Assembly: GCA_046095365.1 (NCBI GenBank)
Contig: JBJTJF010000077.1
Reading direction: 5' to 3' (one strand)
Source: Mycobacterium sp.
GTDB taxonomy: Bacteria > Actinomycetota > Actinomycetes > Mycobacteriales > Mycobacteriaceae
DNA: 64,000 nucleotides
A program made the position numbers and the translations under genes. This document shows, in pieces, positions 37,465 to 42,937 of the stretch. Positions within the stretch are counted from its first letter, which is position 1. Every line of letters starts with the position of its first letter. The notes beneath the pieces are model-generated. The model was not told the DNA's origin and made no database searches. It saw only the letters and a program-made list of their open reading frames with translations.

Positions 37465-39108
37465 CTATCGGCGGCGGCTCTTCTTGCGCGGCGGCGGCAG
37501 TGCTCCCTCTGCGCGCAACCGGGCGGCGTGCTCGGCCAGCGCGTCCACCAGCGGACCGACAGCGGCGGTCTCCGGCTGGACGTCGACCCGCAGACCGAAC
37601 TCGGCCGCGGTCTCGGCGGTCTTGGGGCCGATGCAGGCGACGATGGTGCGGGCATGTGGCTTGCCGGCGATACCGACCAGGTTGCGCACCGTGGAACTCG
37701 ACGTGAAGCAGACCGCGTCGAACCCGCCGGTCTTGATCATCTCCCGCGTCTCCGCCGGCGGCGGAGCGGCGCGCACCGTCCGGTATGCGGTGACGTCCTC
37801 GATCTCCCAGCCGCGCTCCCGCAGGCCCTCGGCCAGGGTCTCGGTCGCGATGTCCGCCCGCGGCAGCAGGACCCGGTTCACGGGATCGAAGACCTCGTCG
37901 TACTCCGGGAACTCGTCAAGCAGCCCCAGTGAGGACTGCTCGCCGGAGGGCACCAGCTCCGGGCTGATCCCGAAGGCACGCACCCGGTCGGCGGTCGACT
38001 CGCCGACGCAGGCGATCTTGACCCCGGAGAAGGCCCGGGCGTCCAGCCCGAACTCACCGAACTTCTCCCACACCGCACGGACCGCGTTGGTGGAGGTGAA
38101 GACCACCCACTGGTAGCGGCCGTCGACCAGGCCCTTGACGGCCCGCTCCATCTGGGCGGGGCTGCGGGGGGGTTCCACGGCGATGGTCGGGACCTCGATG
38201 GGCACGGCGCCATGAGCGACCAGGCGGTCACTCATGTCCGCGGCCTGCTCCTTGGTGCGCGGCACCAGTACCGTCCAGCCGTACAGCGCACGGCTCTCCC
38301 ACCAGTTCAGTTTCGCCCTCGCGGTGACGGTTCGCCCGATGGTGACCACCAGCGGACCGGCCAGCGGCCCGGCGGCGTCTCCGGCGCCCAGACCACGGTC
38401 GGTAAGACCGACCAGGGTCGACTCCACCGATCGCTGGCCGCAGGTGCTGCCCTGCGCGGTAACCACGCACGGCGTCCCCTCGGCCAGCCCCTGCTCCATC
38501 AGCGAGCGGGCGGCGTCGGCCAGATGCGACGCGGTCGCGGTGAGGATGAGCGGTCCCGGCGCCGCGGCCAGCGCCGCCCAGTCCACCTCCCCGCGCACGT
38601 CGGCAACGGTGTGGGTGGAGCCAACCGGCAGGCCGGCGTAGGTAGGCACCGCCGCCGTGGCCGGCAGGCCCGGCACGATCTCGAAGGGCAGGTGGGTCTT
38701 GGCCACGGCCGTCACCTCGGTGGTCACCGAGTCCATCGAGAGCGGATCGCCGGCAACCAGGCGCACCACGTCGGACCCGGTCTTGGCAACGGCGGCCAGC
38801 GTCTTGGCCACTTCGGCCGGTTCGCCCAGTGCCGGCCGGATGTCGGGCCCGACCCAGACCACCGGGGGCGCGGTCTGGTCGTCGGTGGGGGCTCCGTCGG
38901 GCGCAGGGCCCGCGGCCGGGGGGAGGTCGGTCCCGATCAGCTTGAGCACCGCCTCGGGAACGTCGGGGTCGGTGAACACGCAAGCGGCATTGGCAAGGAC
39001 GGTGCGGGCGCGCACCGTCAGCAGACCCGGGTCGCCCGGGCCGGAGCCGACGAACGTGATGCGCCCCGGCTTCGGCTTGCGCCCTCGCGCGGTTGCGTGA
39101 CCAGACAT
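37465..39108 (-). CDS. hemD: Bifunctional uroporphyrinogen-III C-methyltransferase-like/synthase
   Basis: FVGSGPGDPGLLT N-terminal domain, then WWESRALYGWTVLVPRT, FTSTNAV, FTSSSTVRN. Confidence 0.95.
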   Translation of the reverse strand: MSGHATARGRKPKPGRITFVGSGPGDPGLLTVRARTVLANAACVFTDPDVPEAVLKLIGTDLPPAAGPAPDGAPTDDQTAPPVVWVGPDIRPALGEPAEVAKTLAAVAKTGSDVVRLVAGDPLSMDSVTTEVTAVAKTHLPFEIVPGLPATAAVPTYAGLPVGSTHTVADVRGEVDWAALAAAPGPLILTATASHLADAARSLMEQGLAEGTPCVVTAQGSTCGQRSVESTLVGLTDRGLGAGDAAGPLAGPLVVTIGRTVTARAKLNWWESRALYGWTVLVPRTKEQAADMSDRLVAHGAVPIEVPTIAVEPPRSPAQMERAVKGLVDGRYQWVVFTSTNAVRAVWEKFGEFGLDARAFSGVKIACVGESTADRVRAFGISPELVPSGEQSSLGLLDEFPEYDEVFDPVNRVLLPRADIATETLAEGLRERGWEIEDVTAYRTVRAAPPPAETREMIKTGGFDAVCFTSSSTVRNLVGIAGKPHARTIVACIGPKTAETAAEFGLRVDVQPETAAVGPLVDALAEHAARLRAEGALPPPRKKSRRR

Positions 39109-39114
39109 ACTCTC

Positions 39115-39185
39115 TCCCGCCTGCCGCTGCCGCGGCAGTCTCCCGCTTCCGCCGCTATCGCGGCAGTTCCCGCTCCGCCGCCATG
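39115..39185 (-). repeat. Degenerate ~27-bp triple repeat at the hemC 3' end/hemD leader
   Basis: Units begin tcccgc at 39115, 39141 and 39168. The first two share cgcggcagt; the third is partial. Confidence 0.6.
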
Positions 39186-40117
39186 ACCTCGCGCGCACCG
39201 AGATCGAACAGTTCCGCGGCGACCGAGAGCCCAAGCTCTGCGGCCCGGCCGGGAGTGCCGATACCGGACACACGGATCACGTCGGATCCGTCCACCGCCG
39301 CTACGCAGGCGCGAAGCGACAGCTCCTCGAAGACCAGGCCGTCCTCATCAATGGACTCGACCACCTCGGCGATCGCGCCCACCGGTGCGGAACAACCGGC
39401 CTCCAGGTCGGCGAGCAGGGTTCGCTCCGCGGTGACCGCCGCGCGGGAGTCGGTGTCGTCCAACTCCGCCAGCAGTTCGGCCAGCGCAGTGTCGCCGGCG
39501 CGGCATTCCACCGCGAGCGCTCCCTGCGCCGGTGCCGGCAGCATCTGCACCGGCTCCAGAGTCTCGGTGACATCACTGAGTCGTCCCAGTCGGGCCAGGC
39601 CCGCCCGGGCAACCACGATGGCGTCGAGATCACCGCTGCTTACCCTGTTCAACCTGGTGTCAAGGTTGCCCCTTAGGGGGCGGATTTCCAAACCGAGACC
39701 CAGTGCTCTAAGCTGCGCGGCCCTTCGGACGGATGAAGTACCGACGATGGATCCGGCCGGCAACTCGCCCAGCACCAGCCCGTCCCGGGCGACCAGGGCG
39801 TCGCGCGGGTCCTCACGCCTCGGAACTGCGGCGATGACGAATCTGTCGTCCGCCGCGGTGGGCAGGTCCTTGTAGGAGTGCACCGCCATGTCGACCCGTC
39901 CGTCGGCGATCGCCTCGCGCAGCGCGGCGGTGAACACCCCGACCCCGATCTCGGCGACCGGTTGGTCGGAGCGGTCGCCGGGGGTGCTGATGATGACCAG
40001 TTCGGCTGCCCGCCCCCGCGCGATCAGCTGATCTCGGATCGTCCCGGCCTGCGTGGTGGCAAGCAGGCTGCCGCGGGTGCCGATCCGAATCGCCGGGGAG
40101 CTGGCCATGTCGATCAC
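39155..40117 (-). CDS. hemC: Hydroxymethylbilane synthase
   Basis: [61 protein letters not shown]. Start GTG 40117 or ATG 40108. Confidence 0.98.
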
Positions 40118-41088
40118 GCCTCCAACTGCGAGACGATGCGGTGGAAGACGTCTTTCACCGAGTCGTACTGCGGACTTGTCTCGACGATGTACTTTCCCCT
40201 CAGCAACGTGGTGCGAACCAGGTCGTAGTAGGCGTGGCGGGGATTGTTCTGGTGCTTCTTTGCGCCCCACAGGTGGTAGAAGGTGTTCTGCAGTTCGGCC
40301 GCGACGGCCCCCGGACCTGGACCCAGATCCATGTCGAGCGGGCAGAAGTCATTGGAGGCCCACAGCGCCTTGACCATCGCCCTGGTCTTGATCGGGGTGT
40401 TCGCCACCATCGCCCAGTAGTACGCCAGGGCCGCAAGCAACCACTGCTCGGTCACGATCTGGGCCGAGGACCACGGGTACATCAGGTGCGAGTTCGGGTT
40501 GGCATATTGCACGTCACCGGGGGCGTCAAGGGCGAACCCGAAGTACTTCTCCACATAGTCGTTCTTGAACGCCTCGTTGAACATGCCGACGACCGCGCAA
40601 TTCATCGGCAAGGTTCCCCGGAAGCACCTGACCATCTCCTCATCCCACAGGAACCCCGGGGGGCCGGTGATGTCGAAGACGTTCGGGTAGATGGCGGTGG
40701 TCTCGCGGTGCAGATAGAGCAGATCGCAATCGGTGAAGTCGGTCAGGCGCCGGTGCACGATGATGTCGGTGTCGAAGATCACGAACGGAGCGTGCAGCTT
40801 GGACATCGCCCAGATCTTGGGCGATGCCCAGAAATTCCTCGAGATCCGCTCACGCGGGTAGTCGTCGTGGATATGGGTGATCACCTCGTCGTACAGTCCG
40901 GTCAGCTGCCAGTCGTCGTAATACCTGACGGTGTTCGGGTCGGTGATCAGGACCAACGGGATGTCGGGGTTGACGGCCTTGTGGTTGATGCAGGAGTAGA
41001 TGTGGGTGAGCAACTCGAACTTGCGCCGCTCGATGTCCGAGTCGGTCGGATAGGGCGTATCGATGAGGTAGACGTGGCACGCCTTCAT
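40114..41088 (-). CDS. Uncharacterised GT-A-fold / DUF6734-like putative glycosyltransferase
   Basis: 324-aa ORF with [22 protein letters not shown] (DxD), NCAVVG, TEQW, YHLWG. ATG 41088 overlaps the hemA TGA. Confidence 0.75.
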
Positions 41089-42455
41089 CAAGAATTTTTG
41101 TCCGGCAGCGGGAACTCACCTGCAGCCAGCGCGTCGACGGCCTGCGGGTCGAGCTCGAACAGCTCCCGCAGCGCCTCGGCATAGGTGTCGGCCCCCGGAG
41201 CGCCGGCCAGCTGCTTGACCCGTACCGTCGGCGCGTGCAGCAGCTTGTCGACCACCCGGCGCACGGTCCGGGCGATCTCGTCGCGGTGGGCGGCGTCCAG
41301 CCCGGGCAACCGGTGGTCCAGCCGCAGCAGCTCGGCCTCGACGACATCGGCGGCGCGCTGGCGCAGAGCGGTCACGGTGGGGGTTACCTCGGCCATCCGC
41401 TGGTTGGCCAGATAGGCGCCGACCTCGGCGGCGACGATACGGCGGGCGGACTCGGCGTCGGCGGCGGCGGCTCGGGCCGAGGGCTCCCGCTGCACCCGCT
41501 CCATGTCGACGACCCAGACCCCGGGCAGTCCGGCGACGGCCGGGTCGATGTCGCGCGGCATGCCCAGGTCGCACAGAACCAGCGGCTCGCCCAGCTCGTC
41601 GCGGGTCGTGGCGGCCAGCGCATGGTGGACATCGGCCAGTGTGACGACCGGCCGCACCGCGCCGGTGCAGCTGACCACCAGGTCGGCCCCGGCCAGCGCG
41701 GTCTGCAGCCCGTCGAGAGTCATGGCCTGCGCGACGATGCCCTGCTCGTCGAGGTTTCGCGCCAGCCGTTCGGCCCGCGGGAGTGACCGGTTGACCACGT
41801 TGATGCGGCCGACGCCGGCCCGGACCAGGTGGGCCGCGGTCAGGCTGCCCATCGAACCGGCGCCGATCACGGTGGCCGTGCGCCCGGCCAGGGCGGTGTA
41901 GGAGGGGCCCAGTTCCGGCCGGTAGAGCCGCTCGGCGGCCACGTGCAGCGCGACGGAGACGACGCTGCCGCCGGCGGCGTCGATCGAGGTCTCGGCGTGC
42001 ACGCGCTTGCCCACCGCCAGCGCTCGCTGGGCCAGGTCGTGCAGCACCCGTCCGACGGTCCGGTTGGCCTCCGCCGTCGCGTAGGCGCGGCGGACCTGAC
42101 CGAGCACCTGCTGCTCGCCGACCACGGCGCTGTCCAGTCCGCTGGCCACCGCGAAGATGTGCTCGACCGCGGCCTCGCTGTAGCGGACGTAGGCGTGCCT
42201 GGTGAGGTCGCCCATCGACAGACCGGAATGCTCGGAGAGAACCTGGCCGATCGCCGCCAGGCCGCCGTGGAAGGCGTCGACCACGGCGTACACCTCGACC
42301 CGATTGCAGGTCGACAGGATCATGGCCTCGGTCACCAGCGGGGATTGCAACACCTGCTGGATGATCTTCACCTGATCGGCTTCGTCGGTCGAGAGTTGCT
42401 CGATGACCGAGACCGGTGCGCTGCGGTGAGACACCCCGAACAGCAGGACGCTCAC
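41088..42455 (-). CDS. hemA: Glutamyl-tRNA reductase
   Basis: [47 protein letters not shown]. Confidence 0.98.
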
Positions 42456-42580: not shown

Positions 42581-42841
42581 TCACCGGTTCGTGACGTCGG
42601 CCCGCAAACGGGGCTCGTCGACGTCCCAGTAACTGTGTTCGCGGCCGTCCAGGAGAACCACCGGCAGCCGGTCGCCGAACTCCGCGCGCAGGGCGGGTTC
42701 GCCGGCGGCCGCCGCGGCGTCGACGTCGGTGCTGGACAACTCGAAGTCCAGTTCAGCGGCCAATTCCGCCAACCGCCGATGGACCCGTTCGCAGAGCCCG
42801 CAGCCCGCCCGGGTGAGCAGTTCGACGCGAGCCCGACTCAT
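42581..42841 (-). CDS. Glutaredoxin-like protein (Rv0508-like)
   Basis: [28 protein letters not shown]. Confidence 0.9.
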
Positions 42842-42937
42842 GACCGGCAGTCTGGCACCCCGGGGTTTCAGATCGACACGGGGTGGCATTCCCGCCGACA
42901 GGGTGGCGGTGGCACCCCCACCGATAGGCTGGTCGGC

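Follow-up and report, generated by a model that had tools for sequence, protein, structure and literature searches.

The window analysed here, a stretch of 64,000 nucleotides (nt) from a Mycobacterium sp. (contig JBJTJF010000077.1 of GenBank assembly GCA_046095365.1), carries a gene of the DUF6734 family that lies between hemA and hemC, the genes of glutamyl-tRNA reductase and hydroxymethylbilane synthase. The coordinates of these features are collected in Table 1. A preliminary description of the window had placed a 324-residue open reading frame (ORF) exactly between the two hem genes and joined to them by the overlaps TGATG and GTGA, and this arrangement is borne out, on the minus strand. 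The ORF runs from an ATG at 41088-41086 to a TGA at 40116-40114; it was listed in a longer version (40114..41091, 325 amino acids, aa) because an in-frame TTG stands one codon upstream of the ATG. The 5′ junction is, as far as can be judged from the letters, a termination-reinitiation type of coupling. At the 3′ junction, the TGA overlaps a GTG in the hemC frame as GTGA. The GGAGG that had been pointed out upstream of this GTG is present, but it is only 1 nt away from the GTG and 10 nt away from an ATG at 40108 that is also in frame, so that on spacing this ATG is at least as likely to be the start of hemC; whichever start holds, the gap between the inserted gene and hemC is at most 5 nt.

No terminator-like or promoter-like site was seen among hemA, the DUF6734 gene and hemC, and an Rfam search of the locus matched no family. 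The seamless operon coupling claimed earlier is thus upheld, and from the overlaps and the absence of such sites we infer that the three genes are transcribed on one mRNA. In the uninserted loci of the same genus that were compared (genomes G001, G002, G003, G005, G006, G007 and G008), hemC follows directly 3′ of hemA, which is the arrangement in H37Rv as well. Neither an insertion sequence (IS) nor an integrase was found at the insert, just as the preliminary description had stated; at its edges, the two stop/start overlaps contribute the only repeat, TGAT (4 nt). This TGAT, which flanks the insert on both sides and is the core of the ancestral overlap, is the sole candidate for microhomology or duplication. 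An antisense frame of 347 aa on the plus strand (40141..41184) was considered as a gene and rejected: it matches no Pfam family and is an expected by-product of the high GC content at third codon positions (GC3, 0.895).

Table 1. Features at the hemA-hemC locus of the window, with GC content at the three codon positions (GC1 to GC3).
Feature	Coordinates	Strand	Description	Family evidence	GC1	GC2	GC3
DUF6734-family gene	40114..41088	minus	324 aa; GT-A/GT8-like putative glycosyltransferase	Pfam PF20508	0.537	0.380	0.895
hemA	41088..42455	minus	glutamyl-tRNA reductase, 455 aa	NCBIfam NF000744 616 bits, TIGR01035 449 bits; Pfam GlutR_N, Shikimate_DH, GlutR_dimer	0.782	0.475	0.912
hemC	39155..40108 (ATG) or 40117 (GTG)	minus	hydroxymethylbilane synthase	TIGR00212 294 bits; Pfam Porphobil_deam, Porphobil_deamC	0.757	0.524	0.814
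5′ junction TGATG	41086..41090	minus	hemA TGA (41090-41088) and DUF6734 ATG overlap by 1 nt				
3′ junction	40106..40123	minus	GGAGG 40123-40119, GTG 40117-40115, in-frame ATG 40108-40106				
uroporphyrinogen-III methyltransferase/synthase fusion	37465..39273	minus	TP_methylase + HEM4; next after hemC	Pfam PF00590, PF02602			
glutaredoxin-like gene	42581..42889	minus	upstream of hemA	Pfam PF05768			

The lowered GC content of the inserted gene, which the preliminary description had noted, was confirmed in 300-nt windows, where the values are 0.57-0.63 within the ORF against 0.72-0.76 in the flanks. As shown in Table 1, the deficit is limited to codon positions 1 and 2, and the foreign signal therefore resides in the amino-acid make-up and not in codon usage. 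Phe, Tyr, Met, Ile, Asn and Lys (FYMINK) account for 28% of the DUF6734 protein, for 9-10% of HemA and HemC and for 34% of a phage homolog. The interpretation of the low GC as a recent transfer is ruled out by the host-like GC3, and since GC3 is host-like, the transfer is taken to be old and ameliorated. In other words, the gene does look foreign, but this look is a relic kept by protein constraint and not a mark of recent arrival. Of the foreign insert proposed earlier, the AT-type amino acids remain; what does not remain is that it should be recent or private, for its third positions resemble those of the host and the arrangement recurs in at least 8 assemblies of one clade.

The protein matches Pfam DUF6734 (PF20508) with 32.4 bits against a gathering cut-off of 27 (E 8.1e-8), residues 22-224 aligning with profile positions 25-218 of 286, and precomputed PF20508 matches exist for nearly all of its close homologs. 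In 42 close homologs, W87, A88, P90, K91, D106, D108, E214, Q215, H272, L273, W274 and K277 are invariant. In a family-wide alignment of 66 sequences, D108 and H272 are invariant and S32, K91, D106, H127, E129, Y134, N163, E214, Q215, W274 and K277 are conserved to at least 90%; the window protein has every family-wide conserved position of this alignment. The motifs noticed at the outset from the sequence (W-A-x-P-K-I, DTD, TEQ and HLWG) coincide with the conserved ones.

An AlphaFold (AF2) model was built from the 42-sequence alignment, with a mean predicted local distance difference test score (pLDDT) of 92.9 and a predicted template modelling score (pTM) of 0.91. It consists of alternating strand and helix elements, and a strand at residues 102-105 is followed directly by D106-T-D108; the two marks of the GT-A fold, a single Rossmann-like alpha/beta/alpha domain and a DxD that ends the central strand, are both found in it. 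The best 50 PDB neighbours listed by Foldseek all belong to a single structural group of sugar transferases (GT8-like GT-A), among them glycogenin (E 2e-6, template modelling (TM) score 0.43-0.55), UGGT, the Skp1 alpha-galactosyltransferase, XXYLT1 and the GT8 protein 3tzt, and many GT-A enzymes are matched with a Foldseek probability of 1.00. The top matches in BFVD are viral GT8/DXD glycosyltransferases (E 3e-7 to 1e-4). The earlier proposal of a GT-A-like member of DUF6734 is thus supported by the Pfam score, by the model and by the structural neighbours. That is to say, the protein has the GT-A fold and belongs to DUF6734, and by sequence it does not belong to GT8. It is a soluble protein with no hydrophobic segment (maximum 19-residue Kyte-Doolittle mean 1.2), and neither a signal peptide nor a membrane segment was found in it. 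As modelled, it would be a metal-dependent transferase of nucleoside-diphosphate (NDP) sugars in the cytoplasm. Searches of NCBIfam and PHROGs with the protein gave no match, and neither the window protein nor two phage homologs matched any PADLOC-DB model at E≤0.01.

Moderate structural similarity (TM 0.43-0.55) and the lack of a significant sequence match to any characterised glycosyltransferase (GT) family also fit a GT-A-fold protein that is no glycosyltransferase, be it a transferase or hydrolase of another kind that depends on nucleotides, or a binding protein in which the metal site is kept. Relatives fused to a methyltransferase, which are described below, persist although H272 and other site residues have been replaced in them, and this speaks for the same possibility. 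It is nevertheless considered improbable, because the 50 best PDB neighbours listed are sugar transferases without exception and because the conserved set (DxD, C-terminal His, two Lys, Asn and Glu-Gln) is ordered like the catalytic motifs of GT8.

A profile search of 1.84 billion representative proteins matched 713 of them, and only 23 lie below 1e-30, after which there is a drop to about 1e-26; the window protein can be assigned to a tight, sharply separated subfamily of DUF6734. Outside AT-rich aquatic phages and a few actinobacterial metagenome-assembled genomes (MAGs), this subfamily was not found. In the GTDB species genomes it occurs at 9 loci, every one in MAGs, several of whose isolate names suggest lakes (Loclat, ELA, ME-, Baikal). 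Across the genus, the gene is present in 3 of 401 sampled genomes, and the carriers measure 2.8-4.0 Mb; the gene-carrying mycobacteria appear to be a reduced-genome environmental lineage. The preliminary description had allowed that the gene might be routinely present at this site and already characterised: the former is the case only within a small clade, and for the latter, a literature search found no paper that names DUF6734 or PF20508. A search of the literature on freshwater mycobacterial MAGs found nothing specific. As to genome size, the three carriers (G000, G079 and G233) are small, most other listed genomes of the genus having 4.3-6.7 Mb, and the window genome itself (G000) has 3.57 Mb at an estimated completeness of 98.65%.

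In IMG/VR, the gene was found at 67 phage loci, all of 31-36% GC, on contigs of up to 187 kb, and the window protein reaches 55-57% identity with phage proteins. The phage gene stands in a constant order: two conserved genes, Lys/Glu-rich proteins of variable length, DUF6734, one to three small genes, the large terminase and a T4-type portal, terminase and portal lying 1-2 kb downstream of it. This order is kept even between DUF6734 copies that are only 30% identical. The phages that carry the gene are uncultured, large, aquatic and myophage-like. Their nearest terminases are those of Microcystis phage Mel-JY01 (59%) and of Flavobacterium 'immuto' phages (56.5%); a tblastn search with two queries, the window protein and a distant phage homolog, found no DUF6734 homolog among 50,697 deposited phage genomes, not even in Mel-JY01 or the 'immuto' phages.

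The genes directly 5′ of the phage DUF6734 gene (for example, L020 1836-3965 and L017 3130-5959) encode modular, Lys/Glu-rich proteins of 156-840 aa, which share the motifs PSAYANAWAAKQYK..GGGW and a C-terminal EAEYQG...YWSC module. In every case such a protein is encoded before DUF6734, and no family match was obtained for these proteins. They were considered as tail fibres, and as such as a possible glycosylation target, and were rejected because they have neither fibre-like features nor a family match. In three of the phage loci (L060, L062 and L084), the large terminase is split into parts of 274 aa and about 396 aa by an ORF of 246 aa, being intact at 524-528 aa in sister phages; the split looks like the insertion of a mobile intron or a homing endonuclease. 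At a further locus (L109, G042:C279, 8451-10354, minus strand), two tandem weak DUF6734 paralogs with 30% identity to the window protein are carried by a member of another bacterial family of the same order and adjoin a radical S-adenosylmethionine (SAM)/SPASM protein and a major facilitator superfamily (MFS) transporter; this region may be a cluster for a modified peptide or a small molecule.

A tree of DUF6734 rooted with ten distant DUF6734 proteins unites the 12 actinobacterial sequences in one clade (support 90/93), which is sister to one phage clade (91/97). These two clades lie several nodes deep in phage sequences, the phages being monophyletic in 0% of the bootstrap trees, and a quick DUF6734 tree agrees with the outgroup-rooted one. 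The horizontal acquisition proposed in the preliminary description is thereby supported, the gene being nested among phage genes and present in just three of the sampled genomes of the genus. In the window genome, neither a homolog of the upstream phage protein nor Terminase_6N was found, and the idea that the mycobacterium holds further genes of that phage type was dropped, as none turned up in the genome. The transfer of a single gene from the phage gene pool to Actinobacteria is, on these trees and gene inventories, the best reading.

The order hemA-X-hemC, with the DUF6734 gene as X, is present in the window and at the loci L004, L008/L033, L011, L035, L038, L039 and L040, that is, in at least 8 independent assemblies. 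The proteins from L004, L008/L033 and L011 are 75%, 68% and 59% identical to that of the window. The surroundings are likewise conserved: the glutaredoxin-like gene upstream of hemA occupies the same place in L004, L008 and L011 and belongs to the conserved synteny, and the fusion of TP_methylase and HEM4 also follows 3′ of hemC in L008 and L011. In the window, the listed GTG of this fusion gene overlaps hemC, and the real start probably lies downstream of it. The start of the DUF6734 gene overlaps the hemA stop in 7 of 8 lineages, as TGATG in five (window, L004, L008, L035 and L040), as ATGA in L011 and as TTGA in L038, and in L039 there is a gap of 1 nt. On the other side of the insert, the GTGA overlap of L038 runs straight into the conserved N-terminus of HemC, MIRIGTRG.

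In a tree of HemA and HemC, the insert-bearing loci form one clade (97/96), which also contains the uninserted genome G006. The latter is the nearest relative at species level and sister to the window (100/99), its HemA is 91% identical, and in the absence of an insert its hemA TGA overlaps a hemC TTG directly as TTGA, reading cTTGATCCGGATCGG (L024, G006:C246, 2860-2890). This points to a precise loss of the gene or to its replacement by homologous recombination. The DUF6734 tree has broadly the topology of the Hem tree, and because the carriers form one clade in which an uninserted genome is nested, one gain followed by vertical descent and one loss is the simplest history.

So constant a position raises the question of whether the enzyme is tied to tetrapyrrole synthesis, either modifying or regulating HemA or HemC or glycosylating a tetrapyrrole-related molecule, so that its place in the operon would be adaptive. 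The gene stands at exactly the same junction in at least 8 lineages whose HemA differs by 13-18%, the overlap with the hemA stop is kept at seven of the eight junctions, a relocated copy (L037, below) still carries hemA and hemC fragments, and in B. subtilis the same slot is occupied by an unrelated regulator gene, hemX. Against such a tie, close homologs occur in contexts without hem genes (phages, a methyltransferase fusion beside dnaG, and acyl-CoA or epimerase neighbourhoods), G006 has lost the gene with its hemA/hemC overlap left intact, and 398 of the 401 genomes of the genus do without it. Moreover, an identity of 55-57% to phage proteins speaks for an activity that has not changed and whose target is shared with phage-infected cells. 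The tetrapyrrole-related role suggested in the preliminary description thus finds no support in the homologs of unrelated context or in G006, and a functional tie to the pathway is judged quite unlikely.

Copies away from the hem locus are derived. One (L034) lies between a methyltransferase gene and SnoaL/epimerase genes, and another (L036) lies among genes for an AT3-SGNH acyltransferase, an enoyl-CoA hydratase, an acyl-CoA synthetase and a cutinase; both are still intact ORFs. Other copies are fused to a C-terminal class I methyltransferase and lie beside dnaG. No hem remnants were found at the relocated loci L034, L036 and L014. In the fusions P0029, P0012 and P0019 (540-555 aa; L014 6001-7665), H272 is replaced by Arg, and P0029 also lacks N163, E214 and K277; the transferase domain of these fusions may be inactive or repurposed. 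Their methyltransferase domain was considered as a pointer to tetrapyrroles and set aside, since 15.6 bits to BchM/ChlM against a cut-off of 158.9 is noise. The truncated copy L037 (CAMCWJ010000297.1, 207-1493), which has DUF6734 from residue 32 on, keeps a 3′ fragment of hemA (the last ~35 codons) and the first ~50 codons of hemC; this cassette appears to have been moved or transferred along with pieces of its hem flanks. The MAG in question (61% GC) is labelled 'Bifidobacterium breve', and this species label looks wrong.

The pairwise ratio of nonsynonymous to synonymous substitution rates (dN/dS) is 0.13-0.36 for the DUF6734 gene, from which it follows that the gene is maintained by purifying selection; the ratio for hemA and hemC is 0.06-0.21, and the inserted gene is constrained more loosely than its neighbours. 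All of the copies at the hem locus (8 of 8) are open, free of frameshifts and in possession of the conserved residues. The looser constraint, the seamless position with overlaps on both sides, and the circumstance that a clean loss is possible yet was seen once only would suit a neutral or selfish passenger that persists because it is wedged between essential coupled genes, where most deletions are polar. However, values of 0.13-0.36 over saturating dS are not those of a neutral gene, the catalytic-type residues are all intact with no frameshift in eight lineages, and the copies that have left the operon in L034 and L036 are still intact. For these reasons, the passenger is the least probable of the explanations considered here, and very improbable in itself.

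Between L011 and L040, dS is 0.66 in the DUF6734 gene, 0.07 in hemC and 0.28 in hemA. This excess in the inserted gene suggests either allele replacement by recombination or a very different regime of mutation or selection confined to that gene. Evolution faster than that of the flanks, which may reflect allele replacement or an arms race, is also what would be seen in a domesticated phage gene serving superinfection exclusion or a function akin to defence, for instance by glycosylating something that phages need (the precursor of a receptor, some host factor or nucleic acid), and the phage origin and the patchy distribution with loss and relocation would agree with it. On the other hand, no PADLOC defence model was matched, the gene has neither partner genes nor a membrane segment or signal peptide, its phage counterpart is a fixed gene beside the packaging module and not a variable moron, and dN/dS is well below 1. 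Such a defensive role is regarded as unlikely, if slightly less so than the tie to tetrapyrrole synthesis.

The explanation preferred here, with a probability of roughly 0.62, is that of a domesticated phage enzyme of the GT8-like type, for which the hem operon serves as a constitutive expression site and whose target is unrelated to heme. In terms of mechanism, D106 and D108 of the DxD together with H272 would hold a divalent metal that binds the diphosphate of the NDP-sugar, K91 and K277 would assist, and N163 and E214-Q215 would line the sugar or acceptor site. The sugar would be passed to a cytoplasmic acceptor, for which a protein, a peptide or a small metabolite common to phage-infected cells and mycobacteria is the most likely candidate. 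In terms of history, one phage copy entered an ancestor of the clade of small-genome environmental mycobacteria, landing exactly in the overlap of hemA stop and hemC start, where the TGATG and GTGA overlaps were both recreated. Vertical inheritance at the site, amelioration of GC3 and purifying selection followed, with one loss (G006) and a few events in which the gene moved or was fused elsewhere. As for expression, translation of the DUF6734 gene is presumed to be coupled to that of hemA, and translation of hemC in turn to follow the DUF6734 gene; transcription is taken to proceed with the hem operon because the gene appears to have neither promoter nor terminator of its own. On this account, the hem locus would be a permissive site at which the gene could dock and be expressed constitutively, and its location would not indicate any part in heme synthesis.

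Several observations weigh against the enzyme just described. There is no match to PF01501 (Glyco_transf_8) at E≤1, and no match to the PDB by sequence with a single sequence or two profiles. A comparison by hhalign with an approximate sequence of human glycogenin-1 gave E-values of 0.24 and 0.11, which are not significant. The Foldseek TM-scores (0.43-0.55) are modest, and the assignment of functions to residues proceeds by analogy. Since the fused relatives have lost H272, not every member need be a transferase. Finally, that the exact position has been held over a long divergence, with few lineages moved, is also predicted by a functional tie to the hem genes. The hhalign alignment with glycogenin is nonetheless in register, placing DTD on DAD and K91 (the lysine of WASPK) on the lysine of the preceding helix. 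As for the metal and diphosphate site of GT8, the order of its residues is that of the conserved D106/D108, H272 and K277, but the C-terminal spacing is H-x4-K and P-W is absent. A wider proposal, which is put forward as a speculation and rated improbable, is that DUF6734 is a new GT8-like family directed at a universally conserved cytoplasmic target, be it some component protein of the core machinery or a metabolite in common use. It would serve large aquatic phages as a fixed late-region gene that remodels the infected cell, and a freshwater lineage of mycobacteria would have captured it into the heme operon for a new constitutive glycosylation of that target, its dose following the translation of hemA.

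What emerges is an unusually clean evolutionary story. A phage gene has been slotted into the 4-nt stop/start overlap of a conserved operon, with the coupling recreated on both sides, and the case is well documented; it has been inherited for so long that only the amino-acid composition still betrays the AT-rich origin. New here are the limitation of the GC dip to codon positions 1 and 2, the arrangement in at least 8 assemblies, and the nesting of the actinobacterial clade in phage homologs. The family is catalogued and uncharacterised and is not a new kind of system; accordingly, to call the gene the strongest candidate for an undescribed function in the window, as had been done, is fair only because the whole of DUF6734 is uncharacterised. 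The family may be flagged, by its conserved residues, as a GT-A family that is probably catalytically intact and that a large group of uncultured aquatic phages carries as a fixed gene. An enzyme activity could open a new glycosyltransferase family as well as a new phage-host interaction. In addition, the gene can serve as a natural marker of a clade of environmental mycobacteria that is little known and has small genomes (2.8-4.0 Mb), and at present the gene has no bearing on heme biology or on pathogenic mycobacteria.

Among known systems, the closest in family terms is DUF6734 itself: the window protein scores above the cut-off and shares the family-wide conserved positions, but it stands in a separate subfamily, and the Pfam model spans only its residues 22-224. 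The extra gene between hemA and hemC recalls hemX, a non-biosynthetic gene in the same place in the hemAXCDBL operon of B. subtilis. HemX is an integral membrane protein, whereas the window protein is soluble, has a GT-A fold and is phage-derived, so the likeness is positional only. The suggestion in the preliminary description that the gene could make up for an absent mgtA finds no support; MgtA is a GT-B enzyme, a fold that differs from GT-A. The best structural neighbours are GT8 (glycogenin GYG1/GYG2, XXYLT1 and bacterial GT8 proteins), GT24 (UGGT) and GT77 (Skp1 AgtA). Like GT8, the window protein has a GT-A fold, a DxD after the central strand and conserved residues in the same order, and its C-terminal H-x4-K resembles the H-x-x-G-x-x-K-P-W motif of GT8. 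Unlike GT8, it has longer spacers between the motifs and an extra helical C-terminal region (286-323), and the relation amounts to 13-16% identity, TM-scores of 0.43-0.55 and a non-significant sequence similarity. Viral glycosyltransferases (from uncultured Caudovirales, Synechococcus phage S-SCSM1 and Mimiviridae, as found in BFVD) have the same fold as the window protein, and the closest relatives of the window gene are phage-borne as well, lying beside packaging and structural genes.

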